Shown here in pieces: positions 1 through 18,370 of a DNA stretch of 20,564 bases. The stretch lies in assembly GCA_016928755.1 (NCBI GenBank), contig JAFGKB010000065.1, forward strand, positions 1-20,564. Direction: 5' to 3'. Origin of the DNA: Anaerolineae bacterium. Its GTDB lineage: Bacteria; Chloroflexota; Anaerolineae; B4-G1; SLSP01. The notes under the pieces were generated by a model. It made no database searches, was not told the DNA's origin, and saw nothing but the letters and a program-made list of their open reading frames with translations. Each line of letters begins with the position of its first letter. The stretch's first letter is position 1. The position numbers were made by a program, and so were the translations under genes.

Positions 1-40
1 ACGTTTTTCTCTGTCTGTCCTTCACAAAAGAGGTAAATAC

Positions 41-1294
41 TCATTCAACCACCTCCCCTGCTAACCGGAATTGCACAGGAGGCAAAAAATCACCCCAAAC
101 ACGTGGGTCCAACCCTGTTTCCAACCAGGTGAGTAAATTATCCGCATCAAACCAAGTAGATTTCAGATGACCTTGTTGCAGGTTGAGGAGAAAGGCTCTA
201 GTGTCATCGGGTGACAAGGCACCTTCCTGCAACATCTGAGTCAAGTGAGCAACCACTTCCAAACTATGAGAAACCATAAAAACTTGGATTGGTTTCCCGC
301 GTACAATATCAGCCACTTCTCGCAAAAGTTTACCTAATGTTTGTGGATTCTGAAACATCTCCGGCTCCTCCCACAGGAGCATAGCCGGCATAGCAGGTGT
401 AGCCAAGTGCGCAAGAGCAATGAGGGGCGTAAGTAGCTTGAAAGCGGACCGGGCACCATCTCCCCAGGCATCAATAGGTACAGCAGTACTCTCTTCCGGC
501 GCGATCCAGCCCTGAATAGCGTGTGGCTCATTTTTGGTAGGTAAAAACTGCACAGTAAAAGAGTCGGGAAGGTCAAAGATACGGGCAAAGCGTTGCGCTA
601 TTTTCTGGGTCCAGCCGGGGACCGTCGCCAACATCTCTTCATAAAAGTTCGCCGGCAAATGTTCCTGTACATTGAGCATATCATAATAAAGCACATGATT
701 AGCTGGGGGTAAATTGCCTTTTACCCACCAATTAGCACTTCCTTTGTAAAAATGAGTTAACTCCCGCTGCCAGCAAAAGACAAGTTTTTGATCATCTGGC
801 CAGTCTTCCAACGGGTGACCCATTAACTGAGTAGCAAATTCCATTAATCGGACTATCTCATCAGGGTTAGGTTGCAAACGAAATAGATATATTTGCAAAG
901 ACTCACGCTCAGTAAGCGGAGCATTATCAACAGCGAGATCAAAGGTATTAATAGGCACCCGTTCATCATCAACAGTAACTTGCAAGATATCCTGGCTAAA
1001 GCGATTACTACCATTTGTCACACCACTATGTTTGTGCCGTTTCGACAAATGATTAGTGGGATGCTGATTAAGCATATCTCTAGCTGGCAATCCAACAGTA
1101 TAGCTTTCAGAACGACCTTGGTCAGACACAATCAAACTAGCAGACCGGTTCGCCGTACTGGCTAAATAAATTAGTTCCAACACTGCTGTCTTACCCGCAT
1201 TATTTGGCCCCACAAGGAGGTTAAATTGGCGTAAACGGTCCAGTTTTCCAGTCCCAATACCACGAAAGTTATGAATCTCTAACTGTTCTATCAT
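41..1294 (-). CDS. ABC-type P-loop ATPase of the OLD/RecF-like (AAA_15/AAA_21) class with no fused nuclease domain. It is the downstream gene of the RAMP plus ATPase pair.
   Basis: The 417-aa ORF has an N-terminal 'LEIHNFRGI' motif typical of RecF/SMC/OLD-type ABC ATPases. Walker A is 'LLVGPNNAGKT'. A degenerate signature-like 'WGDGARSAF' sits upstream of Walker B 'AMLLWEEPE', and an H-loop 'FMVSHS' follows. I see no TOPRIM or HNH motif. The start ATG overlaps the stop of the upstream ORF (ATGA at 1291-1294). Confidence 0.8.
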   Translation of the reverse strand: MIEQLEIHNFRGIGTGKLDRLRQFNLLVGPNNAGKTAVLELIYLASTANRSASLIVSDQGRSESYTVGLPARDMLNQHPTNHLSKRHKHSGVTNGSNRFSQDILQVTVDDERVPINTFDLAVDNAPLTERESLQIYLFRLQPNPDEIVRLMEFATQLMGHPLEDWPDDQKLVFCWQRELTHFYKGSANWWVKGNLPPANHVLYYDMLNVQEHLPANFYEEMLATVPGWTQKIAQRFARIFDLPDSFTVQFLPTKNEPHAIQGWIAPEESTAVPIDAWGDGARSAFKLLTPLIALAHLATPAMPAMLLWEEPEMFQNPQTLGKLLREVADIVRGKPIQVFMVSHSLEVVAHLTQMLQEGALSPDDTRAFLLNLQQGHLKSTWFDADNLLTWLETGLDPRVWGDFLPPVQFRLAGEVVE

Positions 1295-2415
1295 ATCTCT
1301 GCCTCTGAAGGTAAAGTCTTATTAACAAAATCTTGTACTTGGATACTTGATAAAGACTGAAAAAATGTATCTGAAGAAGCAAAAGTTACCTCCGCAGTAC
1401 GATAACGAACCTTTAACGCACGCAACCATGTATCAGGTTTTCCTAAAACGGCTTGTAACCGTTGTCCTACTTCCTGCTGTTGGCTTTGTCTTACGTGTGG
1501 GGGATAAGCCCATCCACGTATCCGCCAAGTCGTCGAATCCGGTAATTGGTAAGCCCAACTCAAAACTATTTTACTACGACTACGCTTTTCACCATGCAAT
1601 GTGCCAAAAAATTGGTGGGGTAAAGAACCAGATGACCATGAAACACCATAACGCAGTACATTTCTCAAAGCTGGTGTTGTAGGTATAGTATGATAATGCA
1701 ATAGATCACTCACTTTGTTATGATGGTAATGCTCACGAATCACTCTGTCTATCCCTGGAACAGTCTGCCACCAATCGTCGCTCTGTGGCTCAAAGTTAAG
1801 AGCAAAAAAAGTAAAAGTACGTAAGTCAGGAAAATTATGGTTATTTTCGCCGCCAGTTAAAGTATTCCAACTGTAAGTTGACTGAGGTAGCTCATTCACT
1901 TTGACAATTGAGAATAATCCGTAACCAAGTTGAGGTCTAGCTCCCAAGTTACCCCATTTTTCAATAAATTTCAACAAAGCTAAAACAAAAGACTGTGTTT
2001 CAGGCTCTGCAATAATCTTAAGCTTGAGTGTCCCCATCTTCCCTGCGTTAAGATACCAACCATGATTACGGCCTGGAGGTTTAATATTTATTTGTCCACC
2101 TGACCAGGTATCACGCAATCCAGAACCATCCACTACTAACCGAAATCGACGCCGCCAGCCAGTAGCGCCAAATAGTTGACACGCATCACATAAGCCATCT
2201 TTGGAACTTTCCAAATCATAAACACAAGAGTGCTTTGTTGGATCACATACCCGCCCACCCAAGCCACGTACAATAGCTTCATACCACCAGCGCAGGCTAC
2301 CGATAATACCAGTTTCGTGGACGCGATCCATCTTACCAGATTCCACGCCGCCGGTCCACAGAGGCGTCAACATCTTGATTTCTAATTCCATTTCCAGCTC
2401 CACATAAAACAACAC
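1291..2415 (-). CDS. RAMP-superfamily (Cas7/Cmr-like RRM-fold) protein with no CRISPR array or other cas genes in the window.
   Basis: The 374-aa ORF has a beta-1 'KMLTPLWTGG' that resembles the TPLhIGGG of Cmr1/Cmr6/Csm5. The helix 'GIIGSLRWWYEAIVRG' resembles IPGSS[LI]KGxLR. A Cys/His cluster (C-x4-H-x-C ... C-x2-C) is followed directly by 'QLFGATGWRRRF', as in the CxxC-(R/K)LFG of Csm3/Cmr4/Cmr6. A G-rich loop 'GARPQLGYGLF' lies about 165 residues in. The remaining 200 aa are unassigned but include 'FFGTLHG'. Three in-frame ATGs are possible at 2415, 2391 and 2373, and the one at 2391 has GGAG 7 nt upstream. AT-rich codon usage matches the ATPase gene and differs from the neighbouring genes. 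Confidence 0.6.
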   Translation of the reverse strand: MLFYVELEMELEIKMLTPLWTGGVESGKMDRVHETGIIGSLRWWYEAIVRGLGGRVCDPTKHSCVYDLESSKDGLCDACQLFGATGWRRRFRLVVDGSGLRDTWSGGQINIKPPGRNHGWYLNAGKMGTLKLKIIAEPETQSFVLALLKFIEKWGNLGARPQLGYGLFSIVKVNELPQSTYSWNTLTGGENNHNFPDLRTFTFFALNFEPQSDDWWQTVPGIDRVIREHYHHNKVSDLLHYHTIPTTPALRNVLRYGVSWSSGSLPHQFFGTLHGEKRSRSKIVLSWAYQLPDSTTWRIRGWAYPPHVRQSQQQEVGQRLQAVLGKPDTWLRALKVRYRTAEVTFASSDTFFQSLSSIQVQDFVNKTLPSEAEI

Positions 2416-2512: not shown

Positions 2513-3448
2513 TCACACCACCAACCACTCATAGAGGCCATTGAAGGTGATATACGGGCAGACTATTTCTTCACAGAGGATGGTTTGCGTGGCGGCGGCC
2601 ATACCAAGCCGCACTGCTTCTTCAGGGGAGACACCTTCTAACAAAGCATAGGCAACCGCGGCCGTCAGTGCATCGCCGGCACCGGCGGGGTCAACCACCT
2701 CCACCGGGAAAGCCGGCAGGCGTCCGCTCTCCTCTGGTGTGGCATAAGCAAGTCCATCTGCGCCCAGCGTGATAATGGCGAGGTCAACGCCTAATTGCAC
2801 CAGCCGCCGCGCCCCCTGGACGATATCCCCCTCACTAGAAAGGCTATCCCCCAAGAGACTTTCCGCCTCAGCCAGACCTGGGGTGAGCACACTGATTTCA
2901 GGAAAATAGGGGTGCAACCGGTGGGATAACAGAACCGCCGTGGGATCAACACAAACCGGGACATCATATTGATGCGCCAACCGGAAAACAGTCTTCAATG
3001 TCGCGGCAGAGAGATTCGCATCAATACAGACCATCTCAGTCTCGCTAAATAGCCGACGATTGCGGTTCAGATAGCCGGGGGTGATCTCACGTATGATCTT
3101 CATATCATCAAAGGCCACCCAGAGTTGCCCATCCAGATGGTGGAAAGCGGCATAGGATGCAGTAGACCGCTCAGGGATTTTGAGGGCGTGTTCTGTGTCC
3201 ACCCCCATCTCATGGAGGTTTTCCAACAGCCGTTGGCCATCGGCATCATCACCCACAGCGGTGATAAATTGGACATTCGCCCCTAAGCGGGCCAGGTTCT
3301 CGGCTATATTCCGGGCCACCCCGCCCCACCCCCAACGAATCTGGCCAGGATTGGAGCATCCCGATTCAATGGTCTCCGTGCGTGGCCAGACCTGCACATC
3401 CATTGTAGCCGCACCTATCACTAATAAGCTATGCTCTCCGTAACTCAT
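2513..3448 (-). CDS. PfkB-family carbohydrate/nucleoside kinase, pseudouridine kinase (YeiC/PsuK)-like.
   Basis: The 311-aa ORF has an N-terminal 'LLVIGAATMDV...SNPGQIRWGWGGVARNIAENLARLGANVQFITAVGDDADGQRLL' that closely matches the N-terminus of the pseudouridine kinase/ribokinase family. The C-terminal 'VVDPAGAGDALTAAVAYALLEG' is the PfkB anion-hole/catalytic DPxGAGD motif. The start overlaps the stop of the upstream ORF (ATGA at 3445-3448). Confidence 0.85.
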   Translation of the reverse strand: MSYGEHSLLVIGAATMDVQVWPRTETIESGCSNPGQIRWGWGGVARNIAENLARLGANVQFITAVGDDADGQRLLENLHEMGVDTEHALKIPERSTASYAAFHHLDGQLWVAFDDMKIIREITPGYLNRNRRLFSETEMVCIDANLSAATLKTVFRLAHQYDVPVCVDPTAVLLSHRLHPYFPEISVLTPGLAEAESLLGDSLSSEGDIVQGARRLVQLGVDLAIITLGADGLAYATPEESGRLPAFPVEVVDPAGAGDALTAAVAYALLEGVSPEEAVRLGMAAATQTILCEEIVCPYITFNGLYEWLVV

Positions 3449-4422: not shown

Positions 4423-5727
4423 TTAATCTTGCGTTATTAAAACATTTGAGGAATTATCAGCACCACCAAAGTTACCGCCATCGGCTTGCAAGACATTGAT
4501 GATCTGCATCAAACTCTCGATTTGTTTAAACATCTCTTTTTGAACTTCAGGATCACGTTCGACCATCGAGCGCAACACATCGACAAAGCTAAGCACAATC
4601 AGTTGTGATGGAACTTCAACGCCATTATTGACCATATGCTGAACGTCTTTTAACATAGTCGTAACTAAATTCGCTTCAGCACTGATACGAGCCTGCATAA
4701 CTACATCCGTGTATTTTGCTTCACCCTCATTGACTTTACGGTCAGCATAACTCTGTAACTTAGCCTGCCAGAATTCCAGCCATTGGCGCGAGATCGCCTC
4801 TTCGGCAGGCATAATAGGCCCAAGTTGCACGCTCTCAACCTCAATTCCCAGGTTAGCCCCGGCTTTCTTGGCCGCCCCCTCAAGCTGTACCTCAAGTGAA
4901 CCTAAAGTCTGTGGCTCAAGTTCCCTTTCCGGTTGCCCCTCTTCAGACCAATACTGGGGATTCAACAACTGGTCAAGGCGGTACTGTTCAAGCAAGTCAC
5001 GAATATCACCATCTAACACGCCCCCAGATATACGCCCGGTCCAATCTTGGAAAACACCCTCCCCCTTGACCCGCTTAATAGTTGTAGCGGTCATAATTGC
5101 CTCTTCAGAGAAGGGATAGGGTACAGATTCCGTCGGTGGCTCTTCACCACTGCTAATCCGGAAACGGATATCGGCTTCACAATGAGCCGGGATACCATCA
5201 CGGGTCATAAATTCAACTTCAACGGTCCGTCGCTGGGGGCGCAGGTCGACAACTTCCCAAACCCGCTCAAAAGCCTCTAATTTATGGAACCCCGGTTTGA
5301 GGATCCGCTTGAGTTTACCAAACTGGGAAGTGACTACCGCGCTATCATGGCTCACACCAAGGAAACCCGGCCCACCCAATTTAAGCATCGTTGCCGGGCC
5401 ATCGGGGTCGGTGTGGCCTTCTCGCACACTTAAAACAGGACTAAACGGAGGTTGTTTCGGCAAGCCAAAGACAATACGATTGACCAGGTCCCAGGCATCA
5501 TCAAAAGACAAGTCATAAAAGCTCTGAGCAAACTGGATCAACACACCGATGGAAGCGGCAAAAGCCAGCCCCAGACTCATACCAAAAGCCATTACCAGTA
5601 TAAAGAAGGTCAACTGCCGCTCAGAATAGAGGCTAGGAAAACCAAAGAGCAGCAATACAGCAAAGACTAGGGTAAAGATAACAACACTCAGACCAATAAC
5701 AGTTCTCGCATTAATTTTGCCACTCAT
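4423..5727 (-). CDS. Membrane-anchored SPFH/band-7 (flotillin/stomatin-like) protein.
   Basis: The 434-aa ORF has two N-terminal hydrophobic helices. The next segment, 'KLGGPGFLGVSHDS...LKPGFHKLEAFERVWEVVDLRPQRRTVEVEFMTRDGIPAHCEADIRFRI', follows the SPFH core pattern (PGhh..hP...h..VDhR.Q.h......TKD.h.h.hd..h.aRI). The C-terminal part is Ala/Glu/Gln-rich and coiled-coil-like, as in flotillins. Confidence 0.7.
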   Translation of the reverse strand: MSGKINARTVIGLSVVIFTLVFAVLLLFGFPSLYSERQLTFFILVMAFGMSLGLAFAASIGVLIQFAQSFYDLSFDDAWDLVNRIVFGLPKQPPFSPVLSVREGHTDPDGPATMLKLGGPGFLGVSHDSAVVTSQFGKLKRILKPGFHKLEAFERVWEVVDLRPQRRTVEVEFMTRDGIPAHCEADIRFRISSGEEPPTESVPYPFSEEAIMTATTIKRVKGEGVFQDWTGRISGGVLDGDIRDLLEQYRLDQLLNPQYWSEEGQPERELEPQTLGSLEVQLEGAAKKAGANLGIEVESVQLGPIMPAEEAISRQWLEFWQAKLQSYADRKVNEGEAKYTDVVMQARISAEANLVTTMLKDVQHMVNNGVEVPSQLIVLSFVDVLRSMVERDPEVQKEMFKQIESLMQIINVLQADGGNFGGADNSSNVLITQD

Positions 5728-5729
5728 GC

Positions 5730-7280
5730 TTACCCCTCCTTTTCCTTCTTAGTTTCCGGCTCTCGTTTAGTTTCTTTAGCCTTTTTGCGCAGGTTAACAA
5801 GTGCCGGCAACGCCAATTCAGGCAGCAAAGGCCGGACCTCTGGACTACGGGCAATACTCTCTAACGAGTCCAGGAGGTGATAAGCTATCAGATTATGTGT
5901 CAGTTTGCCATCCGCATGCTGGAGCTGGGCACTGGTTTTCTCCAAGAGCTTGTGAACCAAATCAACCCGTGCCTTACTCTGCGCCTCGGCAAATGCCTTA
6001 AAGCGCTCAGCCTGAGTCTGAGCCTGCCATTCCATAATTTTCCCGGTCCAGCTCGCTTTCCAGGCTTCAATACGCTGCTCGGTAACGCCCTGATCAGTAG
6101 GATAAATCTTATTTCCCACCCCACCCCCAAGAACCTTAAAGCCTTTGGCTTCCAGAGTCTCTTTAACAACTTCTCGTACTGCCGCACCTAAATCGGCTCG
6201 GACGGGTTTCTCAGTATTGGGGTTAGCATACAAATGGTTCAGACTATACTGGGCAACCACCTTCTTAAGCTGTGGAATTGCAACCCTAAGAGGTAAGTCT
6301 AACCAGGGAAAGGCATCGTGAGCTTTCAGCGGTGTCTTGCCCTGGGGATTAACTTCGGCAGCAGAAAAAACTACTTTAAAAGCATCACTCTTCCGGTATG
6401 GCCAGGGCTGCCCTAATTGGATTTGCCCGTCACCGGGGTTAACCTGGAAGATAGATGAGATCGGCAAACTAACACTTATACCGTCTCGTGTGATAGCTTC
6501 TACTCGCTGCGCCCTTAATTGCGGGCGCAGGTCAAGGACAGAGTGTATTAAATCCCCACTCTCAGTAAAAATCACACCAGGACCATCAATCCGGCGAATA
6601 TCGGAAGAACCCTTGATTACGATTGCATTATGCGGCTCAGACATCACCCAACCGGGGCCAGACCCTAAGAAGGGATTCCCCTTGATGCGCGGCTCAGCTT
6701 TACCATCCACCACCATCCAGGTATTCTTGGGAAAGGTCGTGAAAAACCCAACGATTAGAGAAAGTGTTTTACGCAGCTTTCCTTCTTCCTCTGGGTCAAC
6801 AGGGATAATTAAAGATCCCCAAAGCACCAGGGCAAAAATAGCGCAGAGGGGCGGAAGTCCCATAAAAAGGAGATAGAGCAAAAGTTGCGCCACCGTAAAA
6901 TCGTAAAACATAAGCAAGACCCCGCCCAGACCCAAAGGGACCAAGACGCCCACCAGAAAGACCGCCGGAATAGAAACAGGGACTATCTTGGTCCACATAA
7001 TGAAGATTAGGAAAGGTACCAGGGGGATACAAATACTCAACAGCAAAACAGATAGCATATGAGACGGCAACACCCCAAGCCACAACAGACCGGGCAAGGG
7101 CCACAATAAAACACCCCACATGCCTAAAATTGCCGCCAGAGTACGCGAAAGCGGGTCAACAAATTTTTTCTTAGGCGCAGGAGGTTTTTTAATGGTGTTC
7201 ATAAAAATATACACAGCACCCGTCATATAGATAATGAATATTAGCAAACGTAGCAACATACTACCTCCTCCCCACAGCAA
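5730..7280 (-). CDS. Polytopic membrane protein with a C-terminal SPFH/band-7 domain, a paralogue of the downstream gene.
   Basis: The 516-aa ORF has about six predicted TM helices in the first 170 aa. It then reads 'IDGPGVIFTESGDLIHSVLDLRPQLRAQRVEAITRDGISVSLPISSIFQV', an SPFH-like core that also matches 'GPGF...VVDLRPQ' in the 4423-5727 product. The tail is coiled-coil-like and ends with a Lys/Glu-rich C-terminus. RBS GGAGGAGG lies 7-14 nt upstream (7283-7295 on the minus strand). The stop is 2 nt from the next start. Confidence 0.65.
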   Translation of the reverse strand: MLWGGGSMLLRLLIFIIYMTGAVYIFMNTIKKPPAPKKKFVDPLSRTLAAILGMWGVLLWPLPGLLWLGVLPSHMLSVLLLSICIPLVPFLIFIMWTKIVPVSIPAVFLVGVLVPLGLGGVLLMFYDFTVAQLLLYLLFMGLPPLCAIFALVLWGSLIIPVDPEEEGKLRKTLSLIVGFFTTFPKNTWMVVDGKAEPRIKGNPFLGSGPGWVMSEPHNAIVIKGSSDIRRIDGPGVIFTESGDLIHSVLDLRPQLRAQRVEAITRDGISVSLPISSIFQVNPGDGQIQLGQPWPYRKSDAFKVVFSAAEVNPQGKTPLKAHDAFPWLDLPLRVAIPQLKKVVAQYSLNHLYANPNTEKPVRADLGAAVREVVKETLEAKGFKVLGGGVGNKIYPTDQGVTEQRIEAWKASWTGKIMEWQAQTQAERFKAFAEAQSKARVDLVHKLLEKTSAQLQHADGKLTHNLIAYHLLDSLESIARSPEVRPLLPELALPALVNLRKKAKETKREPETKKEKEG

Positions 7281-7344: not shown

Positions 7345-10300
7345 CTATCCCCCTTTTATAATCAAGGGCAGATATACGACATGTGGTATTTGTAATACAT
7401 TCCCAGCAAAGATATTATTGGTCTCGATAGCTTCTTCAATCATACCAAAGGGTTTACCAAAGGGCGGATCCGCACCAAACCAGGTTACATCGGCCTGTCC
7501 ATAAGTGCGATACGTGCCAGCACCGGGGGCATAACCATCACAAGAATATTCTCGCGACTCCCCGGCCTCTAATGACGTTATCCAAGCGATACAGATACTA
7601 CCATAATGATCACCGACACTGGATGGCGGGGTATTACTCCCCTCTTTGAGATAAGCCTCAACAATTGCTATATAACCAGTATCCCCGTTCCAGTTGCGGT
7701 CAACTGCCATATTACCCTGATTTTCAATGGTGATATAAGCCCATAATGGCTCATTAGCAATGGGGGCAGATGGCTCCCAGCGTACATTGGTGATGACCAA
7801 ATCCGGGGCGATAAAGTAATCGTGATCTTCATCCTGATTGTCCGTCATGTCACTTTCTGCACTCTCCTGCCCGGTTACATACCCCATACTGACCGTATTC
7901 AACACCGACCTTACAGTATCCGTGGGAATAGATGAAGCGAGTTGAATACCAAAGGTCACAGAACGCGAAGCCCCTACGGCTAATGGCACGTTATCAACAA
8001 AGACAAAAACACCATCAGACACCTCTGTCCAGTCCTCCCATGCCAGCGGTGTGACATAGAGACGCGGGGTTATCGTATCGGTAAGTACCACACTCTCCAA
8101 CGGCAAATCAGAGGCTGAAGTATTGGTATACCGGATTGTGTAGTTCAAGGTCATACCAGGGTCTAACCACACCACACCGTCATCTTTGGATACCTGGACT
8201 TCCACTTTAGAGAGTCCGGAAACATCAACACAGGCCGTCTCTTCAACCGGCGATTGTCCTGTTACCGCCACCGTATTGCAATAATCAGCACCATCCGGGG
8301 CCAAGCGGTCCACTTTCGCGCGGAACGTCAAGGTGCGGGATTCTTCGGCTCCGATATTAAACGGCTTCCAGACCACAACCTGCCGGTCACCGGACATAAA
8401 CGGGGTTTCCACATCAGAGGTAGGGGCGATAAAAGTGAAGTTTACCGGCAGCGTATCTGTCACACGCACATTTGAATAAGAGACGGAATCATTGTTTACC
8501 AGTTGGATAGAATACACAACCTCCTCACCGGCAGTAACATGGGTAGGCGTGACCGACTTACTGACCTGAATACCCGATACTTCCAAGGCATCTATATCCT
8601 GGTCACTGTTGTTAGAGGGGTCAACATCCACCGCGTTATCCAGGGTGATGAAACCAACATCAACCTGATTGATGATAGAACCCACCCCAGGTATTGATGG
8701 ATCAATACGCACCGGGAATTTCACAAAATCCGCTTTGCCGGCAGCCAAGGGAGTAGGATAAGCGATCACCCGCCGGTAACGTCCGGTGCCGATCTCCTGC
8801 CAGGCAGAGTCTAAAACCTGGACATAACGACCGGGATCAACCGTCTCGGTCAAGATAACACTCTGTAAACCGGAGCCACCGGCATAAGCATTCGTGTAAT
8901 GAATCGTATAGGTAATCCATTGACCGGGACTAACCAGGGTCTCGCCATCATCCTTACTCACCTGCACGTCAACTTTAGGCGTGGGCAAGACATCCACCGG
9001 AGCCAGCCCGCCGTGAAGTGGCATATCAAATTCCCCGACTTTCACCTGGACCTTATTAAGCCGGACCCCAGACGTTGCAAAAGGTGAGACCTGTGCCCGG
9101 AAGACAAGTTGAACGGTCTTGCCCGGTTCTAAAAGTACTGCGGGCCAAGCAACACCACCGGGGAATGCTGCACCACCGGGCGGCGAGAGCACCTTATCCA
9201 AAGAAATATCACTGGGTAACGTATCGGTTACCCGGACGGTGTAGTTGTCCATTATACCATCCATTAAACGCAGCGAGATAGTATAGACAACCTGATCCCC
9301 GGCACGTACCCGGTCCGGGGAAACGGTCTTGGTCACCGTCACAATCTCCCGGCCACTGATAAGGTCAACATCCTCAGCCGTATTATCACTATGCGATGCT
9401 TCTACAGCATCCTCGGCTAGAGTATAACCAATCTCGACCTTGTTACGAATGCCCAGGTAATCCATAGGAATACTTTCATCAAGCTGTATCTGGAACACGG
9501 TGCTGCCGGAATCACCGGCGACCAAAGGTGTGGTAATCGTGCGCGTATAGCGACCACCGCCTAGGGAATGCCATGCACTTTCCGGGGAGAGCACCGTGAG
9601 ATAATCAGCCGGGAATATGGTTTCGGTCAAAATGATGGTCTCAAAGGTCTTGGCCTCAAGAGATGCATTCGTGTAGTAAATCGTATACTCAAGGGCTTCA
9701 CCCTCAGAAACCCAATCCAGACCATTGCTCTTGGACACCTGAGCGTCAACCCGAGGTAACTCGGTGACTTCAACCCGGGCCAGGTTTTCAACAGGCGGCA
9801 ACACCACCTCGCCCATCTCAACCTGAACACTGTTAAAGTAATTACCACTGGCAATTTCACGATTGGAATGCGCCTTAAATAAAAGCTCTATCGTATCACC
9901 GGCCTGACCTTTAGGGCTAATTGACATCCCCTCACCCTCCCAGACCACAAGTTGTTGACCATCACGTTCCACAACAGAGCCGGGGAAAGGAGCACTAAGC
10001 CCCCCCACCAACGTGAAACCGGCAGGTAAGGTATCGGTCACAATCAAAGGATAGGTGGTATCGGTGTCATTTTCCAGAGTGATCCGGTAGATCACATCCT
10101 CACCGGCCATCACAGCTTGTGGGTCAACAGTCTTCGCCACTTCCACCTTCGGACGGCCCCGCACATTGACCGGGGCTGTGAAATCTGTAGCCGAAAGCTC
10201 TATCAGCCCCTGGCCCTCTTTCTCAGCCTGGCCGGCCAACTGACTCGGATACTCCCCACTGAACATATTCGCATCACTCTGCACCTTATACGTGATCAAA

Positions 10301-13300
10301 TAGCTAGCACCATCATCAATAGGGCCGGGGACCTCCCAGACAAGGTCGTTCGACTCGCCTGCCGGCGTTAGCCCTGCCGGTTGGCTAGTACTGACAAAGG
10401 AGAACCCGTTAGGAATGGTGTCCGTGAATACCAGATTAGATAATTCAGCCCCAGAACCATTATAAAGAGTAAGCGTGTAGGTCGTAGCCTCACCGGCATT
10501 AATGTATTCCGGGTCTACCACTTTAAAGAAACCAATACCCGGCACGACTTCCACCTTAGCGTCGTCGGTGTAGTTCTTGCTGTAATTAACATTCATCGTC
10601 GCCGAGGCTTCCCACGAATTCAAAGCATTCAAACTCAGCCAACCATGAGCACGCGCCGTGAAGACAATCTCAACTTGCTCTAGTGGCGATATAACATCGA
10701 ATTCCCATACAAGCGGGGATTCGCTCACCGGCTCGGGACCATCAATAACCCGCAGGTATTCCCAGGCCAAAACATTCCCGCCACCGGCATCTTTCTGAGG
10801 CAAAATATCGGTATATACAACATTGTAAGCCGGTGCCCCGGTGAGATTTGCCAGTTCTAAAGTATATTGCACCTCGCCAAATGGGCCTACACGTTGCGGG
10901 TCTGCCGGTTTGGAAACTTCAATCCCTTGATTCAAGACCAGGGGTTCAACCTTTTCATCACACGTCACCGGCAACTCGTCGGTAACGACGAATTTAGTAA
11001 CCTTGGGGATACATATCGTCTCGACATCATCCAGCGCCACAACCTGCGCGATAAATTCTTTCGAATAGGTCTCTTTATCGCCGGGTTTATCATAAGTAGG
11101 GGCCTGGAGCGTCAATGTAAAGGCCAAGGTCTCGCCGGGCGGGATCTCTAACCCCTCCCACATATAATAGATGCCATTTTCTGGGTTATCACTAGTGGTA
11201 TCCGGAGGCGGTTCACTGGAGAGAATCTCAAATGGCCCGGCATCCCCTTTCGCTTGGGCCGGGAACCACTGTAGGTCAACACCGGTAACACCGGCGTCAG
11301 GTTCAAAGCGATTATTACGTAACGACACTACAATTGAGAACACCTCACCTACGGCAACCGGATTGGGATAGGACTTTTGGAACAAAGACACATGGGGGAA
11401 CACACAAACAGGGGCCAGCTTAGTATTATAGGCACCACTCCCCCATACCCCGTTATCCAGCATCCCCAGTATATCACTGCCCCTTTGCTCAATCACACCA
11501 TCATCAGGCTCGGCCAGCATATCACACCATGTATGACCTAGCCCATATCCCGACATCGTTACCGGGAATGTATGGGTCCAAGAAGTCGCCCGGTTAGGCT
11601 CCAAACGGAATGGGGTGGGCAGTGTATATTCATACATGGTATCACCATCAGCCGGGTCTTTGAGACCCTTATAAGTATTGGAGGCCGAATCCGGTTTGTC
11701 CAATAAATCGGCAAATGCAGTCAAGGTAAACGGCAAACTGGGTGAAATATTATTTAACCATACCGTATATGTAACCATATCTCCCTGCACTACCTGTTCC
11801 GGCACCACCTTTTTATCATAGCCAATGGGAGGTGTAATATTAATCTTGACATTATTCGTACAAACAGAAGTCGCAGCATGGTAACCGTAGACATAGTTGG
11901 GAATTTGCTTGCCTGACATACCGGCGCGCACAAGGAAAGAGAACTCCACGTGCCCCCCTGGTGACAAAGTAGTAGAGAGCACATCATCCCAACGCAGGAA
12001 TGTCCCGGTTATCAAATTTCCACTCACAACAGGCTCCCCAGGGAAGCTAGATACCATCGCTTCATACTGAAAGAAGGCAGACAAAGCATCGGTTATCACC
12101 AAGGGAGGGTTGATAGGGGTATTCCCCTCATTATCAATTGAAATCGTATAAGTAATCAACTCGCCAAATATCTGCGTAGAAGGCTGAACCGTCTTCTTAA
12201 CCATAAGTTGCGGTGCAACATCAATAGGAGCCAATTCATTATCATCGTGCCCATCATAATAGGGCACAGGGAATTGTGGAGAATATGCAATCACCGAATT
12301 GGGGTACTCAAGAGGCTTACAACGGTCTTCGACCGGAGTCTGTGACGAAATAAAGACCTGGAAAACAGTGCTTATACTCTCATAAGCCCCCACAGGAATG
12401 CTTGACCATTGTACCAAGGTCCCGGTGATTTTTGTAGGAGTCAATATATCACCGGTCACCGGCCCAACATATGAAAAATGCAGGGGCAAGTGGTCCTCAA
12501 TAGTCACAATAGTGGTCTGGGATAAAGGATTATAATAAGTTAAGGTATAAGTAATCATACGATTAGGATAGGAAACATAGGGGTCTACAGGGGGTGATTC
12601 TGTTTGCACGGCTTTATCAACAGGACTTAAAATCTTCACATCATGGTCTTTGGCAAGTGTAGCCGGACGGAACATAACACCATCACAACTAACCCTGACA
12701 TTTTCTGCATCATTCTTCAGTTCGCCCCGTGTCTTAGGATTGTAAATTATATCTACCGGAACCCGTCCCACAAATGTGACGGTTAAAGTCTCCCCGGTCC
12801 CTAAAGTATAAGTACTGGGGAGGGTCCACTGAATTTCATAGGTAGCGGGTGTGTAAACCACCGACACATCGAGATTCGGATGGTCGCTATCATAAGCACC
12901 TGAAGAATCAGGGATATACTCCAGTACGCCATCGTAACCATCCGGCAGCGTATCTTTAACCACCACATGCCTGGCCGGCCAGACATCAGGACGGTCGGCC
13001 TCTTCCTGGGAAAGATTATCAATGACAATCGTATAAGTCACTAAACGCCCCACCCGGCACTGTTCATCCCCGGCACTCTCACCGAAGGCCTTCTTGGTGA
13101 CCTCCAATAACGGGGCTACAATCTGCGCGGAAAGCGGCTCAGAGGAAACGCTCTGTTGACCCCCTAAAGCAACACTTACAGAATTATCAACCGTGGAAGG
13201 GCCGATCTCTTTGTAAGAAAAACTAAAAGGATAATTATCATAACTTTTCAGAGAGGGTTGCACCGTTATCGGAACACGGAGCCAGAATTCAATCTCGACA

Positions 13301-13782
13301 CTTTGGCCTGCCGGCAATGTCTTGAGCCACCATGTAGCCTCGCCGTTGTAACCTACTTCGTCAACCGTTTGGATGGCTTGGGAGATCAGATTGCTAGGTT
13401 CTGCCACAAAACCCTCAAAAGCCGGCAAAACGCCATAGCCCCACAATTTATCATCAATCTCCGGCGTCAGATTTGTGACCCAGGTATCAAAGACTACTAC
13501 ACCATCCAGGTCTCCCCCGCTGGTATTGGTCACTAGCAGGGTATAGGTGAGGCGGTCTCCGGCAAACACCGAATCCTCCCCTTTTAAGCTTACTGCAACA
13601 GCATCCAATGGCGCAGCCGGCCCGCGCTCGGCTTGAGATACAGCCGCACTCAAGGGCCATGCCCCGGTAGCAAAACCATCCAAGGTTGCCAAACACATCC
13701 CGAGGGTCCCCACAGCTATTATAAAAGCGAACACCAACCGCCAGGATTGATGCATACCTTGAAACCTACTGAAGTGTTCCAT
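7345..13782 (-). CDS. Giant secreted cell-surface protein of 2145 aa with multiple DUF11 ('conserved repeat domain') modules and a C-terminal CARDB-like domain.
   Basis: An N-terminal signal/TM segment 'WRLVFAFIIAVGTLGMCLATLDGFA' is present. At least ten repeats show the DUF11 signature, a [LIV]xYT[IL]x[LIV]xNxx run followed about 10 residues later by VTDT[LI]P. Examples are 'VIYRITLENDTDTTYPLIVTDTLPAGFTLV', 'VVYSIQLVNNDSVSYSNVRVTDTLPVNFTFI', 'TTYTLTLYNGSGAELSNLVFTDTIPNGFSFV' and 'LNYTIRYTNTSASDLPLESVVLTDTITP'. The C-terminal 'LVITNVRWEPSAPIANEPLWAYITIENQGNMAV' is CARDB-like. RBS GGGGGAG lies 9 nt upstream of the ATG. Confidence 0.85.
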   Translation of the reverse strand: MEHFSRFQGMHQSWRLVFAFIIAVGTLGMCLATLDGFATGAWPLSAAVSQAERGPAAPLDAVAVSLKGEDSVFAGDRLTYTLLVTNTSGGDLDGVVVFDTWVTNLTPEIDDKLWGYGVLPAFEGFVAEPSNLISQAIQTVDEVGYNGEATWWLKTLPAGQSVEIEFWLRVPITVQPSLKSYDNYPFSFSYKEIGPSTVDNSVSVALGGQQSVSSEPLSAQIVAPLLEVTKKAFGESAGDEQCRVGRLVTYTIVIDNLSQEEADRPDVWPARHVVVKDTLPDGYDGVLEYIPDSSGAYDSDHPNLDVSVVYTPATYEIQWTLPSTYTLGTGETLTVTFVGRVPVDIIYNPKTRGELKNDAENVRVSCDGVMFRPATLAKDHDVKILSPVDKAVQTESPPVDPYVSYPNRMITYTLTYYNPLSQTTIVTIEDHLPLHFSYVGPVTGDILTPTKITGTLVQWSSIPVGAYESISTVFQVFISSQTPVEDRCKPLEYPNSVIAYSPQFPVPYYDGHDDNELAPIDVAPQLMVKKTVQPSTQIFGELITYTISIDNEGNTPINPPLVITDALSAFFQYEAMVSSFPGEPVVSGNLITGTFLRWDDVLSTTLSPGGHVEFSFLVRAGMSGKQIPNYVYGYHAATSVCTNNVKINITPPIGYDKKVVPEQVVQGDMVTYTVWLNNISPSLPFTLTAFADLLDKPDSASNTYKGLKDPADGDTMYEYTLPTPFRLEPNRATSWTHTFPVTMSGYGLGHTWCDMLAEPDDGVIEQRGSDILGMLDNGVWGSGAYNTKLAPVCVFPHVSLFQKSYPNPVAVGEVFSIVVSLRNNRFEPDAGVTGVDLQWFPAQAKGDAGPFEILSSEPPPDTTSDNPENGIYYMWEGLEIPPGETLAFTLTLQAPTYDKPGDKETYSKEFIAQVVALDDVETICIPKVTKFVVTDELPVTCDEKVEPLVLNQGIEVSKPADPQRVGPFGEVQYTLELANLTGAPAYNVVYTDILPQKDAGGGNVLAWEYLRVIDGPEPVSESPLVWEFDVISPLEQVEIVFTARAHGWLSLNALNSWEASATMNVNYSKNYTDDAKVEVVPGIGFFKVVDPEYINAGEATTYTLTLYNGSGAELSNLVFTDTIPNGFSFVSTSQPAGLTPAGESNDLVWEVPGPIDDGASYLITYKVQSDANMFSGEYPSQLAGQAEKEGQGLIELSATDFTAPVNVRGRPKVEVAKTVDPQAVMAGEDVIYRITLENDTDTTYPLIVTDTLPAGFTLVGGLSAPFPGSVVERDGQQLVVWEGEGMSISPKGQAGDTIELLFKAHSNREIASGNYFNSVQVEMGEVVLPPVENLARVEVTELPRVDAQVSKSNGLDWVSEGEALEYTIYYTNASLEAKTFETIILTETIFPADYLTVLSPESAWHSLGGGRYTRTITTPLVAGDSGSTVFQIQLDESIPMDYLGIRNKVEIGYTLAEDAVEASHSDNTAEDVDLISGREIVTVTKTVSPDRVRAGDQVVYTISLRLMDGIMDNYTVRVTDTLPSDISLDKVLSPPGGAAFPGGVAWPAVLLEPGKTVQLVFRAQVSPFATSGVRLNKVQVKVGEFDMPLHGGLAPVDVLPTPKVDVQVSKDDGETLVSPGQWITYTIHYTNAYAGGSGLQSVILTETVDPGRYVQVLDSAWQEIGTGRYRRVIAYPTPLAAGKADFVKFPVRIDPSIPGVGSIINQVDVGFITLDNAVDVDPSNNSDQDIDALEVSGIQVSKSVTPTHVTAGEEVVYSIQLVNNDSVSYSNVRVTDTLPVNFTFIAPTSDVETPFMSGDRQVVVWKPFNIGAEESRTLTFRAKVDRLAPDGADYCNTVAVTGQSPVEETACVDVSGLSKVEVQVSKDDGVVWLDPGMTLNYTIRYTNTSASDLPLESVVLTDTITPRLYVTPLAWEDWTEVSDGVFVFVDNVPLAVGASRSVTFGIQLASSIPTDTVRSVLNTVSMGYVTGQESAESDMTDNQDEDHDYFIAPDLVITNVRWEPSAPIANEPLWAYITIENQGNMAVDRNWNGDTGYIAIVEAYLKEGSNTPPSSVGDHYGSICIAWITSLEAGESREYSCDGYAPGAGTYRTYGQADVTWFGADPPFGKPFGMIEEAIETNNIFAGNVLQIPHVVYLPLIIKGG

Positions 13783-13883: not shown

Positions 13884-14768
13884 CTAATGTAATGGTCCCT
13901 GTCCCGATTCCTGCCGGCGACGCACCCAAGCCACCCCGATCATAACCATAGCTAGACCAATACCCAAAGCCGCAAATCCCAAACCCAATCCGGTCTTAGG
14001 TAAAATACCGGTTTGCTCGGCACCGGTATCTGAGGCACCCTCCACAGCACCACCTGCTCCCATCTGACTTGCGCCAACTCCGGAGGCGGCACCGGTGTCT
14101 GCAGCGGCGGCACCGGTGGCCGTAGCACTTGCCCCAACATCGCTTGTGCCAGAGCCATCAACCGGCGTGGAAGTGGGAGCAATCACACCACCATCACCGC
14201 GTGTTGGTGTAGCAGGTGGACCGGGCAACGGTGGAGATGTAGGCTGTGGTTGGTCCGGGTCATCCGGTTCATCTGGCTCAGTCGTCGGGGGCGGCGGAGT
14301 CTCGCTTGTTGGGGGCGGCGTAGTTGGCGGCGCTGTTGTCGGGGGTGGTGTCGTTGGTGGTGCAGTTGTTGGCGGAGGCGTTGTCGGCGGTGCCGTTGTC
14401 GGTGGTGGCGTAGTGGGCGGTGCCGTTGTCGGTGGTGGCGTAGTGGGCGGCGCAGTGGTTGGTGGCGGCGTGGTTGGCGGCGGTGTAGTCGGAGGGGGTG
14501 TAGTGGGTGGTGCTGTGGTTGGCGGAGGCGTTGTCGGAGGCGCAGTTGTAGGTGGTGGCGTAGTTGGTGGAGCAGTTGTCGGCGGAGGCGTAGTCGGCGG
14601 AGGCGTAGTTGGTGGAGCAGTTGTTGGCGGGGGCGTAGTCGGAGGCGGTGTCGTCGGTTCTTGAGCGAAAACCTGGGGAACCGGCAACGCTCTTGTCCAT
14701 GCACCTAATGCCAATATAAACACTACCAGCAACGTAATCGTAATCCCAAGTAAACGTCGTATATTCAT
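13884..14768 (-). CDS. Sortase-anchored (LPKTG) Pro/Thr-rich repeat stalk protein with no globular domain.
   Basis: The 294-aa ORF has a signal peptide 'LLGITITLLVVFILALGAWT'. About 135 residues are (PTTPP/PTTAP)n repeats. A Gly/Ala/Ser/Thr-rich segment follows, then 'LPKTG', then the hydrophobic 'LGLGFAALGIGLAMVMIGVAWV', then 'RRRQ'. This last arrangement is the canonical LPXTG cell-wall sorting signal. RBS GGGAGGG lies 8 nt upstream. Confidence 0.8.
   Translation of the reverse strand: MNIRRLLGITITLLVVFILALGAWTRALPVPQVFAQEPTTPPPTTPPPTTAPPTTPPPTTPPPTTAPPTTPPPTTAPPTTPPPTTAPPTTPPPTTPPPTTPPPTTAPPTTPPPTTAPPTTPPPTTAPPTTPPPTTAPPTTPPPTTAPPTTPPPTSETPPPPTTEPDEPDDPDQPQPTSPPLPGPPATPTRGDGGVIAPTSTPVDGSGTSDVGASATATGAAAADTGAASGVGASQMGAGGAVEGASDTGAEQTGILPKTGLGLGFAALGIGLAMVMIGVAWVRRRQESGQGPLH
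14306..14655 (-). repeat. In-frame tandem repeat with a 15-nt unit (GGNGGNGGNGTNGTN on the plus strand) and a 30-nt super-period. It encodes (PTTPP/PTTAP)n.
   Basis: The near-identical units 'ggtggtggcgtagtgggcggtgccgttgtc' occur at 14401-14430 and 14431-14460 and continue on either side. The degenerate copies differ mainly at third codon positions and at the Pro/Ala codon. Confidence 0.85.
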
Positions 14769-14810: not shown

Positions 14811-17800
14811 TTAAAAACGTATCACAACCGGCAGATAAATAGTTGAGATTAAGTATTGCTCGCAACCCATAAACTCCTCACTGCCATTATACCCACACAC
14901 TCGCCACGTGAAGGGGCCGGCAACCACGGCTTTAGGCTTAGATTCAGGCACATACATAGTGTTGTTAATCTCTTTGTAAAGCTGGTAATTAACCGAGAAG
15001 TTGTTATCCGAAGCCACTTCCAAATTATAGTAGGAGGCACCCGGTAAAACCGACCACCGGAAATAAGCGGTATCGGTAAACGAATCGGTACGCAACGGGA
15101 AGACTAAGCTTGGAACATCCGAACCTTTGGTAAAACGCCCCTCAGCATAATTATCCTGGCTCATATTTCCTGTGTCTGTGCCATCATACATGCGCACCCG
15201 CCAGACATAGTCACCATTAGGGATTGCGTCCTCAGGTACAAAAATATTATTCACCATCTCATCTTCACTGAAACTATACCCGCCCCCTTCTAGCTCAAAG
15301 TGGTACCGGGCAGCCCCTTGAACAGGAGACCAACTAAAAGTCGGGGTGCTCTTCACAAATTCGCCAGTAGACGGTGATAAATTGGTAGGAACCTGGGCAC
15401 GCTTGCTAAAACGAATCGCACGACTCCAATTAGATTCCAGTATATTCTTACTCCAACTAGATGTAATAGCCCAGGGATCAGGATACCGGCTCTGCAGACG
15501 CCAGAAGTAAACGTTATCCGCATAAACATCAGCTGTCAAATAATAAGGATTAGAATCCGAGAAGGACATAATCAATGGGATTTGACCATTAGGCTCCTCC
15601 CCCTCCTCAATTTGCGAAAAGGTATCATCAGTGCTGCTTTGGTAACGCACATTACGGATATCTTCCATTGTGTGCCAGGTCATCAATGGCATGCGAGGAT
15701 AAATAACTGTACGATCTTCCAAAAGGTGCATATTAGGCGGTGTCCGGGGTGTAGGGGCAGAGGTGACGGCAACATACCCGCGGTCCACCGTATCTATAAT
15801 CGTATCACTTGAAGCATCCACAGAAACCAGGTGGGCATTCACCGTAGCCGGGCTGCCAATCGCAGTCTGGGGTACGGCCAGCATCACAAAACCGGCGGTA
15901 TCACTGTAAATCTGGGTGGTGGTAAACACAGCATAACCAAGTTTATCTAAAAGTGATGCATAATCCCAATTTGCACCCAACTTGGAAAACAACGTCACAG
16001 TGGGCATGCCACTGGCGCCGAACATATCCCACTGTAAAACATTCTCAGGGCGATAAGGATCTCCCGTATCAGGTAAAGCGTTTCCATCAGGATAAGGCGA
16101 ACTATCCATACCGCTATTATGTGCCCCATCCGTATCCAGATAAAGCTGAAACCGCACGGGACTACCGCTTTGCCGGATGGCCCAACCAAAATACCAATAG
16201 CTGTTGTCCATCGCAGTATACAACGCGGTCAAATCATAGCCATTATGTCCAGAATGGTCCCCTAATAAGTCAGCAGTTAATAACGCCTCCTGGCTAAACG
16301 GCTGATTTAACTTCTGTTCCGCATCACTATAAATAGGTTCCGGCGAGAATTGGCGTACCAGGGAGAAATAATACGACCAACTCCACCCATCCCCGCTTCC
16401 CATCGGTTCATTAATACTGTTAAGCGCGCGTACCCGCCAGTAGTAAGTATCAGGGGGATAACGCTTAACAGGAGTATAGTTAGTTAACTCAGTAGCGGTT
16501 GTCTCAACTACAGAATCTCCAAAATCTGAAGACGTAGCGATCTGTACCTCATAATGATCTACGCCGTTAACCGGCACCCATTCCAGGTGGGGGAAGTGTT
16601 CCAATATCTGTTGGCCGTAAATCAAACCATCGCCCTCCTGTTGGCAGGTCGGCTGAACTAATCCAGGCGGCGCAACAGTAGGCGTATAAACATAACGGTT
16701 CTGGTCAATACGGGTCTGCCAAATCTGGCTCCAGGCCCCGTCCCCGGCATTCACCCGCCAATAGTAGATACCCGGATCACTAAAAGGTTCCAGTGAGGTC
16801 GGTGTCGCGCTGAGATTCTCGGTGGTCAACTCCCAGGCAACCGGGGAGAAAAATTTATTATCCGCAACCTGCACAGTATACGTCATCGCTCCCTGGATCT
16901 GGTTCCACATAAAGGTCGGTATTGCTGCAGTTCGGTCTTCCCACCTTAACGTGGTCGGCAAGACAACCGATTGCCCCGGTTCAAGATTGCTATACAGCGG
17001 ATCATAGTAGAATTCGGGATACAACAGATCAGGGGCTACGGCATAAGGGATTCCGGGATAAGAAGGATGGGTCGCTTTCTCCGGGCGGAAAGAGGCACTG
17101 GCATTGGGGGATTCATTATTCCATTCACCGGCTACCTCATAATAGTTAACGGCACGCACCCGCCAGAAGATCTGATTTAAACTTGTAAGATAGTCCCAAT
17201 CACCATCTGATTTCAACTCTTTAACAAGAAAACCAGTATTAATTATATCATCAAAAAAGCCTAAAACATTGGAACTAGGATCCTGTTGGAATGATGAAGT
17301 CTGGTTCATTTCCAACACATAATAGGCAACACCCTCAACCGGGGTCCAGCTAAAATAAGCACTGTTGATATGGTCCTCATTATTCACCGGTGTCAAGGGC
17401 AAAGGACGGCGGTCATTCCCTGCACCTAGCTTACTATCCAGGTTACAGGACCAGCAATAGCTAAATTTACGGCCATTGCCACCATTACTCCAGGGGCCAG
17501 AACGGGTCAGTGCATCCCGCAGATTACTACTATGTACAGCCCGCACCCGCCAATAGATAGTATCATCATTAGGTAATTTATAATCTCGCGCCGCTCCTGT
17601 AGATAGAGCAAAAGCCGTATTCCGGGGTTCATAAGTGTAAGTAAAGCCCGGCCAGCTTGGGTCATCAGGGAAATCAGGGTCAGAGCTGACCTGTAGAATA
17701 TAATATTCCGCGCCATCCACAGCCGTCCATTTTAGAAGTGGCGGCTTATAGAGTACGGCATCCTCTTCTGGCTGAACCAGGTTAGGCGCAATCCCCCAGT

Positions 17801-18260: not shown

Positions 18261-18370
18261 CAGAAGAACCTCCGCCATAACATATTTCTCATCTTCTTAA
18301 TAGGATTTTAAAGGAAAAATTTCCCATTCACAATTTAAGAATATCACTGAGATGATAAGGTTAAAGTCAC

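Follow-up and report, generated by a model that had tools for sequence, protein, structure and literature searches.

At one end of an Anaerolineae contig, a gene for a RAMP protein is translationally coupled to a gene for an OLD-type ABC ATPase, which raises the question of whether the two form a defense module outside CRISPR or belong to a CRISPR-Cas locus. The preliminary description took the former view and proposed that a standalone RAMP serves the ATPase as its effector partner. The window, that is, the whole stretch of DNA that was analyzed, is the entire contig of 20,564 bp, and its position 1 is a contig end. With a probability of about 0.9, window positions 1–2415 (minus strand) are the 5′-terminal part of a type III-C CRISPR-Cas interference operon, truncated by the contig end 14 codons into its third gene.

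The RAMP and ATPase genes

The first gene of the proposed operon, cmr1, occupies positions 1291–2415 (minus strand) and was listed as an open reading frame of 374 aa with a GTG start at 2415. Its true start is probably the ATG at 2391, giving a product of 366 aa, since the NCBI call is a Cmr1 of that length (P0001, 366 aa) and homologues align from residue 9. The product contains all of the motifs on which the RAMP assignment had been founded, namely LTPLWTGG, IIGSLRWWYEAIVRG, a C/H cluster ending in CDACQLFGATG, and the G-rich loop GARPQLGYGLF. Searches against Cas7-group profiles bore this assignment out, with matches above the curated cut-offs of PF03787 (Pfam RAMPs; E = 6.8e-23, 82.6 bits, cut-off 22.1) and TIGR01894 (Cmr1; E = 1.4e-17, 64.4 bits, cut-off 28.65), as well as matches to the PADLOC Csm3 and Cmr1 models. 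Furthermore, the protein is 60–66% identical to the Cmr1 of four complete III-C loci (L001, L008, L011, and L013). By its profile matches and orthologue identity it is a genuine RAMP, specifically a predicted type III-C Cmr1 (group-7 RAMP), and it would act as the RAMP subunit of a crRNA-guided, Cmr-like effector complex rather than as a free-standing sensor. The notion that the C-terminal half of Cmr1 is peculiar to ATPase-bearing loci was rejected, as the Cmr1 of L001, a locus without the ATPase, aligns over its full length with 60% identity. The C/H cluster, ending in CDACQLFG, also matches a short stretch of the Cas7-11e and gRAMP models and of PDB gRAMP chains, but this is a local motif match (E about 0.002–0.04), and the protein is a single-domain Cmr1 rather than a fused multi-Cas7 effector.

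The cmr1 stop codon overlaps the start of the second gene in an ATGA at 1291–1294, and the translational coupling reported earlier is thus real. This gene (41–1294, minus strand) encodes a protein of 417 aa that matches AAA_15 (5.5e-14) and AAA_21 (3.1e-12). The motifs that had been pointed out, GPNNAGKT (Walker A), LLWEEPE (Walker B, hhhhEEPE), and IHNFRGI, are present, with most residues invariant or nearly so in family alignments. Together with a signature region and a Rad50-like head fold, they place the protein in the AAA_15/AAA_21 (Rad50/SMC/OLD/PtuA) class. No TOPRIM or other nuclease domain was found in the 417 aa, as stated before. Judged by motifs and profiles, the product is an ABC ATPase of the OLD/PtuA/AriA class that lacks a nuclease domain of its own, and its gene is a putative accessory embedded in the III-C operon.

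Comparison with models of individual defense systems upheld the class of the ATPase. It is matched by the PADLOC AbiLi, AriA, and mad3 models and by the NCBIfam MADS3 model, the top PADLOC match being AbiLi (3.5e-20, in two partial stretches). However, these matches are confined to the segments around Walker A and the signature/Walker B region, and they fall far under family cut-offs, as does that to PtuA (NF041760, 17.3 bits against 500).

The third gene and the probable type III-C operon

A second ATGA overlap, absent from the preliminary description, lies at positions 41–44, where a third open reading frame starts on the minus strand and runs off the contig end. Positions 44–1 encode MSIYLFCEGQTEKN, the first 14 codons of this gene plus 2 nt. 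All 14 agree without a difference with the beginning of a 236-aa TOPRIM gene, which in orthologous loci comes after the ATPase gene and overlaps it in an ATGA in the same way. In orthologous loci the encoded partner (about 236 aa) is DUF3226/DUF4276-like, with a TOPRIM fold and the catalytic-type residues E...DxD. The RAMP had been cast as the partner of the ATPase in place of a nuclease. Because the third gene starts as a TOPRIM gene and related loci run on into cmr6, csx11/cas10c, cmr4, cmr5, and cmr3, the predicted partner of the ATPase is instead a TOPRIM nuclease, which conforms to the two-gene systems already known, while the RAMP most probably belongs to the III-C effector complex as one of its subunits. 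The claim of a RAMP used outside CRISPR falls, and the locus is most probably a piece of an unremarkable cas operon cut by the contig edge.

The nearest loci (Cmr1 63–66% and ATPase 73–78% identical to the window proteins) share the gene order cmr1, 417-aa ATPase, 236 aa, Cmr6-like, Csx11, Cmr4, ~130 aa, and ~300 aa. Downstream genes in orthologous loci match TIGR02682 Csx11 (2.8e-135, 452.9 bits, cut-off 248.95) and PADLOC Cas10c (1.1e-189), along with PADLOC Cmr6 (8e-81) and TIGR02580 Cmr4 (1.4e-32). Both window proteins and the start of the third gene are identified within the window itself, and synteny with complete III-C loci is conserved. The full operon would comprise cmr1, ABC ATPase, TOPRIM protein, cmr6, csx11/cas10c, cmr4, cmr5, and cmr3; of these, the window shows cmr1, the ATPase gene, and no more than 14 codons of the TOPRIM gene. 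That the missing ~8 kb follows in this genome is something we infer, since the assembly stops at window position 1. As in type III-C (MTH326-like; Csx11-type Cas10), a Cmr1-type RAMP is gene 1, orthologous loci keep the canonical cmr1, cmr6, csx11/cas10c, cmr4, cmr5, and cmr3 (PMC3973734; PMC12669027), and their Cas10 matches TIGR02682 without GGDD. The difference is the insertion of the ABC ATPase and TOPRIM genes between cmr1 and cmr6, seen in ~23% of sampled loci.

In agreement with the earlier reading, array searches of the full 20,564 bp found no CRISPR array, and profile searches of the window ORFs found no cas gene besides cmr1. An Rfam scan of the window gave no match, and a promoter and terminator scan gave nothing beyond shuffled expectation. 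The genomic context counts against the operon reading, in that genes for housekeeping and envelope functions (pfkB kinase, SPFH, DUF11) lie upstream of cmr1 in the window, whereas in close relatives this place is taken by cas genes of type I-C or I-D. The lack of an array is not disqualifying, since most III-C loci lack one (PMC12669027) and the arrays of relatives lie downstream of cmr3. Several III-C loci have arrays in that position, one of which (L095) is of the L008 lineage.

It is very improbable that the RAMP, ATPase, and TOPRIM genes form a small non-CRISPR system in this genome, left over from a III-C locus that shed cas10c and the other subunits. Such a reading draws on the contig end at position 1, which leaves the rest of the operon out of view, on the 18 kb upstream without cas genes or arrays, and on the scarcity of arrays in III-C loci generally (PMC12669027). 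However, among the matches listed, none of ~30 related loci with downstream sequence has the reduced form, and the window proteins are full-length conserved orthologues (ATPase 73–78%) of complete-operon proteins. Contig breaks within multi-copy or strain-variable cas loci are, moreover, common in MAG assemblies. An exact-sequence lookup of the window ATPase returned no second contig on record with the same protein. The caveat raised at the outset, that cas genes could sit just left of the window, was well placed: the contig end cuts the operon, and relatives continue into III-C genes.

Distribution of the ATPase/TOPRIM cassette

A profile search of genome contigs recovered at least 12 full-length ATPase homologues (≥29% identity), each beside III-C genes. 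Cmr1 is encoded directly upstream of the ATPase in all of the full-length homologues listed except L022, in which the ATPase gene lies close to the start of the contig and has a second copy of the partner gene before it. Among the matches listed, cmr6 and later genes come after the pair wherever sequence exists; no locus of the ~30 with sequence past the pair lacks III-C genes, and these continue with cmr6, cas10c, cmr4, cmr5, and cmr3 to the extent that the contigs allow. The hosts include Caldilineaceae, Spirulina, Desulfofundulus, Heliomicrobium, Roseiflexus, Chloroflexus, Thermodesulfatator, and ANME-2 and ANME-3 archaea. The co-occurrence of the two window genes elsewhere, proposed earlier as a check, was thus confirmed by neighborhood analysis: the cmr1–ATPase pairing is conserved across phyla, within III-C loci. 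A plasmid collection searched with the window ATPase gave no match.

From the opposite direction, a Cas10c profile search of metagenomes gave 47 informative III-C loci, of which 11 have the pair, in each case in the slot from cmr1 to cmr6. In the dereplicated set it was present in 9 of 39 (about 23% of the sample, with about 77% lacking it). The literature searched, classification papers included, yielded no description of an ATPase/TOPRIM cassette in III-C. About one in four of the III-C loci sampled, in distant bacterial phyla and in ANME archaea, has the OLD-like cassette in this fixed position, a conserved but apparently undescribed form of III-C. Other selfish modules, of the MNT/HEPN kind, also occur inside these III-C operons.

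Possible roles of the pair

The ATPase and the product of the third gene would make up an OLD-like pair split over two genes, with an ABC ATPase of the Rad50/OLD class beside a TOPRIM nuclease, which recurs as an optional cassette between cmr1 and cmr6. This resembles PARIS AriA/AriB, AbiL (AbiLi/AbiLii), and MADS Mad3/Mad4, in which an AAA_15/AAA_21 ATPase gene is likewise followed by one for a small TOPRIM protein with E...DxD, and the partner is weakly matched by the HEC-01B, AbiLii (one partner, at only E = 0.02), and mad4 models. There are also differences. The partner is DUF3226/PH0156-like, whereas AriB is a DUF4435 TOPRIM, and for MADS the ATPase scores 32.2 bits against a cut-off of 420 (NF047739, N-terminus only), with a mad4 match of E = 0.023 and no methyltransferase in the window or the related-locus gene tables. 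Septu and Gabija do not fit either, as the partner is TOPRIM rather than HNH and, among the matches listed, no helicase gene follows the pair in related loci. The single-polypeptide OLD nucleases (class 1/2) are set apart by the separate downstream gene that carries the TOPRIM domain here. Among the matches listed, the full-length pair occurs only inside III-C cas operons and never free-standing.

Could the pair be an autonomous OLD/PARIS/AbiL-like abortive-infection system nested in III-C operons, as a defense-island hitch-hiker or anti-anti-CRISPR guard, acting independently of crRNA and Cmr1? This is an appreciable though minority possibility. Self-sufficient two-gene systems share its architecture, an AAA_15/21-class ABC ATPase with a TOPRIM protein (PMC11464382), and the cassette is optional and comes and goes among close relatives, as in the near-isogenic loci L153 and L155 (~90% nucleotide identity in cas10c–cmr3), which differ by its presence. 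The tandem duplication of the pair in Roseiflexus and Chloroflexus, and the other selfish modules (MNT/HEPN) that share these operons, point the same way. Against autonomy, the full-length ATPase subfamily members with context, among the matches listed, all sit in one cmr1–cmr6 slot from bacteria to ANME archaea. The sole copy outside a cas locus among those matches (L021, Myxococcota) was rejected as a stand-alone case, being a remnant of the ATPase (225 aa) that carries an internal deletion and has no RAMP in its neighborhood. Furthermore, ATPase and cmr1 overlap at start and stop in the window and close relatives, and pairwise identities of ATPase and Cmr1 co-vary (Pearson 0.85, Spearman 0.62) more strongly than those of Cmr1 and Cas10c (0.54 and 0.13).

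We infer instead that the pair works with the III-C complex, likeliest as an accessory nuclease module that depends on ATP and that the complex licenses or the module guards. Counting against this, about 77% of III-C loci do without the pair, and L153 and L155 differ in it. Such a role would suit III-C because this subtype cannot signal through cyclic oligoadenylates; according to published surveys its cyclase is inactivated and no effectors are known for it (PMC11229360; PMC12669027). In the Cas10c of the loci studied here, the cyclase motif is lost, with no canonical GGDD found apart from isolated loose matches to [GSA]G[DE][DE] (four SGDD/AGDD). The LHD (HD) motif is retained in most Cas10c proteins with or without the pair, and the pair is thus not an obvious replacement for a lost HD nuclease, an idea that was set aside. 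More specifically, and tentatively, the pair may be a physically integrated, crRNA-licensed effector in a subset of III-C complexes, in which target-RNA binding would be relayed via Cmr1/Cmr6 to the ATP-dependent TOPRIM nuclease. If so, cyclase-dead III-C would gain an output in place of cyclic oligoadenylates, and this would be the first OLD/PARIS-type module under CRISPR guidance, connecting two large defense families, CRISPR type III and the OLD/PARIS-class ATPase-nucleases. As III-C is the type III subtype whose cyclase is dead and for which ancillary effectors are not known, a nuclease pair that is encoded within the operon and depends on ATP is a concrete candidate for the means by which it protects cells.

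A non-effector service to the complex, such as maturing the crRNA 3′ end, assembling or turning over the complex, or releasing the target, is improbable. The pair adjoins cmr1, and in Cmr complexes (type III-B) Cmr1 is the subunit at the crRNA 3′ end. No cas6 was seen in the window and several related loci, though cas6 lies directly upstream of cmr1 in L001 and L018 has a cas6-like match. TOPRIM RNases such as RNase M5 exist (PMC12065111), and ATPases have been speculated to power type III complexes (Shah et al., PMC6546367). However, ~77% of III-C loci lack the pair, which therefore cannot be a core maturation factor.

ABC/SMC-type ATPases with small partners are known beside type III cassettes, namely Cas_RecF with RFas, the crenarchaeal 'Cas ABC ATPase' with a small RRM protein, and C3a152 (PMC3973734; PMC6546367). 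These non-CARF accessories are crenarchaeal, ~330 aa long with partners of ~160–170 aa (unknown or RRM fold), and lie beside III-A/B/D, whereas the pair described here is bacterial and ANME, consists of 417 aa and a 236-aa TOPRIM protein, and lies inside III-C. C3a152, labeled 'Type III-C specific' (Cylst_6373, Cylindrospermum; Shah et al.), may be one of these two genes.

Cmr1 and its operon

The ORF at 1291–2415 on the minus strand encodes, from a GTG start, a 374-aa product that the preliminary description had taken for a RAMP on the basis of quoted motifs, every one of which is present. Profile searches bear out this identity: PF03787 RAMPs (E=6.8e-23, full profile 1–189) and TIGR01894 Cmr1 (E=1.4e-17) match far over their curated cut-offs, and several PADLOC Cmr1 and Csm3 models match too. 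Because the NCBI call (P0001, "type III-B CRISPR module RAMP protein Cmr1") is 366 aa long and homologues align from residue 9, translation probably starts at the ATG at 2391. The minus strand carries all long ORFs between 41 and 18278, and the reported ATGA overlap of the cmr1 stop and the start of the ABC ATPase gene at 1291–1294 is real. A second ATGA overlap (41–44) joins the ATPase gene to a third ORF (1–44, minus strand), which starts at 44 and encodes MSIYLFCEGQTEKN before the sequence ends inside the gene. The window is a complete contig of 20,564 bp; with the operon oriented towards position 1, just 40 bp remain after the ATPase stop. The 236-aa protein of the related locus L008 starts with the same MSIYLFCEGQTEKN (14/14 identity), and the first 14 codons of this TOPRIM gene, including the invariant EGxTE, thus lie in the window.

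The three nearest Cmr1 homologues on long contigs (P0005, P0002, and P0006; 63–66% identity) belong to loci that begin with cmr1, a 417-aa ATPase (73–78% identical to the window ATPase over its full length), a 236-aa protein, and a 379–432-aa RAMP, and continue with a 908–927-aa protein, a ~300-aa RAMP, a ~130-aa protein, and a ~270–300-aa protein. Their downstream genes include Cmr6 (PADLOC, 8e-81), Csx11/Cas10c (TIGR02682, 452.9 bits against a cut-off of 248.95; PADLOC Cas10c, 1.1e-189), Cmr4 (TIGR02580, 1.4e-32), a small subunit, and a Csx10-like Cas5/Cmr3. Subtype III-C is defined by Csx11, a Cas10 analogue (PMC3973734); an operon of this order is therefore type III-C, and what the window shows of it is the first two genes and the start of the third. 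Very probably, the window operon itself continues into a III-C operon. The earlier claim of a standalone, non-CRISPR module is very probably a contig-edge artefact. Orthologues of the window Cmr1, ATPase, and TOPRIM protein sit in complete III-C operons. CRISPR repeats and further cas genes are indeed absent from the window, wherein no CRISPR array, no Rfam match, and no cas gene besides cmr1 was found.

The loci of the three relatives are bordered by cas1, cas2, and cas genes of type I-C or I-D. III-C operons lie directly downstream of type I-C or I-D modules at L008 (1491–9953), L011 (420–5067), L013 (2850–7532), and L001 (1280–8305), a locus that lacks the ATPase. The type I-C modules read cas3-cas5d-csd1-cas7-cas4-cas1 and the type I-D modules feature csc2/csc1. 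Unlike in these close relatives, the window cmr1 is preceded by a housekeeping kinase gene.

The ATPase/TOPRIM cassette

A protein search for the 236-aa family gave 89 matches, among which no curated Pfam domain scores above threshold save an occasional DUF3226; two members are named "DUF4276 family" in UniRef. The invariant residues are E8-G9-x-T11-E12, D60-x-D62, H117, D133-D134, and E183-x-K185, and their E...DxD pattern is the TOPRIM signature. Comparison of the partner protein gave values of 12.9 with PH0156 (2p62), 8.5 with the C-terminal TOPRIM region of a class 2 OLD nuclease (6nk8), 6.8 with Thermus scotoductus OLD, and 6.3 with both AriB and Retron Ec67. Published work assigns DUF4276 and RloB to the Toprim superfamily and regards Mad4 as homologous to DUF4276 (PMC12065111), and AAA15/21 ATPases have TOPRIM partners in OLD, Gabija, PARIS, AbiL, and MADS3-4 (PMC11464382). 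The preliminary description was right that ATPases of this class are partnered by a nuclease; the nuclease gene is the third ORF and not the RAMP it had proposed for that place.

Scanning one genome per species with an ATPase-family profile returned at least 12 full-length homologues at ≥29% identity, and all those among the matches listed adjoin III-C genes. Among these matches cmr1 is directly upstream of the ATPase in 11/12; the exception is L022, whose ATPase comes after a second copy of the partner gene, close to where the contig begins. Wherever the contig goes on, the 236-aa gene, cmr6, cas10c, cmr4, cmr5, and cmr3 come next. Among the matches listed, hosts are bacterial (Caldilineaceae, Anaerolineae, Roseiflexus, Chloroflexus, Spirulina, Desulfofundulus, Desulfotomaculum, Heliomicrobium, Thermodesulfatator) and archaeal (the ANME Methanovorans and Methanogaster). 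The protein identities and RAMP–ATPase pairing first described stand, the latter being kept across loci from bacteria to ANME archaea. The sole copy outside a cas locus among the matches listed is an internally deleted 225-aa relative in a Myxococcota MAG (L021, 6678–7355). Its Walker A N-terminus is fused straight to the signature/Walker B C-terminal half, its neighbours are unrelated genes with no cas gene among them, and it is probably a decayed remnant.

Searching metagenomes with a Cas10c profile yielded 80 III-C loci, 47 of them informative (both cmr1 and cmr6 seen, or the ATPase seen). The pair occurs in 11/47, every time between cmr1 and cmr6, and in 9/39 after dereplication at 95% nucleotide identity (~23% both ways). 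None of the ~30 loci with sequence downstream of the pair lacks III-C genes.

Type III-C has already been described (PMC3973734), and the window locus is no new class but a little-described variant of this known subtype. Crenarchaeal type III loci carry known ABC/SMC ATPase accessories, namely Cas_RecF, which goes with RFas, and a "Cas ABC ATPase" encoded alongside a small RRM protein (PMC3973734, PMC6546367). Among the clusters listed by Shah et al. (PMC6546367), the uncharacterised C3a152, labelled "Type III-C specific" (Cylst_6373, 3 members), may be one of these pair genes. Neither an ATPase nor a TOPRIM is named for III-C in the 2025 classification update, and no paper joining III-C, Toprim, and Cas10 turned up in the literature search. 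The interest of the locus rests on an OLD-like cassette embedded in III-C, rather than on a standalone RAMP.

Possible roles of the pair

In III-C, the Cas10 cyclase is inactivated, no ancillary effectors are known, and an HD domain is found in about half of systems (PMC11229360, PMC12669027). In the compared loci Cas10c mostly keeps the N-terminal LHD motif and features no canonical GGDD, just scattered loose matches, and this state is alike with or without the pair. Cmr1 would belong to the crRNA-guided complex as one of its subunits. The pair's fixed slot, overlap coupling, III-C-only occurrence, and co-variation with cmr1 argue for an accessory working with that complex, most likely as an ATP-dependent nuclease output, or as a guard; we give such integration as effector or guard a probability of about 0.6. 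In pairwise identity, Cmr1 and the ATPase vary together over 18 loci (Pearson 0.85, Spearman 0.62), more tightly than Cmr1 does with Cas10c (Pearson 0.54, Spearman 0.13); this is suggestive only.

The main rival holds that the pair acts on its own as a PARIS/AbiL-like system and merely nests in the operon. This would fit the pair's optional presence and tandem duplication, as well as the MNT/HEPN modules also found inside III-C operons; we consider it unlikely. L153 carries the pair and L155 lacks it; the two loci share ~90% nucleotide identity over cas10c-cmr3 and differ in a block that takes in two-thirds of cmr1 (its 3′ portion), runs through the pair, and ends within cmr6, of which it covers the 5′ part (L153 4764–7958 vs L155 588–1715); the cassette is therefore optional and recently exchanged. 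Tandem duplication occurs in Roseiflexus and Chloroflexus III-C loci. A role for the pair in maturation or assembly of the III-C complex is more improbable still than autonomy.

Duplicated pairs are seen at L005 (11068–15129) and L027 (7960–12029), and also at L154, L162, and L165; the L005 ATPase copies have diverged, atp1 and atp2 being 35% and 40% identical to the window ATPase. III-C operons also harbour another type of inserted cassette, a small nucleotidyltransferase module between cmr6 and cas10c, present either as a toxin-antitoxin-like pair of MNT (NTP_transf_2/Polbeta) and HEPN genes (L011 9411–10321, L013 11988–12901) or as two adjacent NTP_transf_2/Polbeta genes (L004 14237–14973).

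Other genes in the window

The rest of the window encodes a pfkB kinase, a TPR-like protein, a pair of SPFH proteins, a giant DUF11 protein, MalQ, and an SLT fragment. The adjacent SPFH/Band 7 membrane proteins (434 and 516 aa; 4423–7280, minus strand) are followed by the 322-aa, weakly TPR-like protein, whose stop overlaps the pfkB kinase start at 3445–3448. Three further minus-strand genes may form an envelope or adhesin cluster. These encode a 2145-aa surface protein with six DUF11 stretches plus DUF7927, DUF7507, and DUF7933 (7345–13782), a 294-aa PTTPPP/PTTAPP repeat protein (13884–14768), and a 1155-aa protein with a signal-peptide-like N-terminus (14811–18278), the latter two without a Pfam match. 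The coding PTTPPP repeats (about 14246–14680) are the sole tandem repeats in the window, and the repeat protein terminates in LPKTG, then hydrophobic residues and RRRQ, an arrangement resembling the cell-wall sorting signals of sortase substrates.
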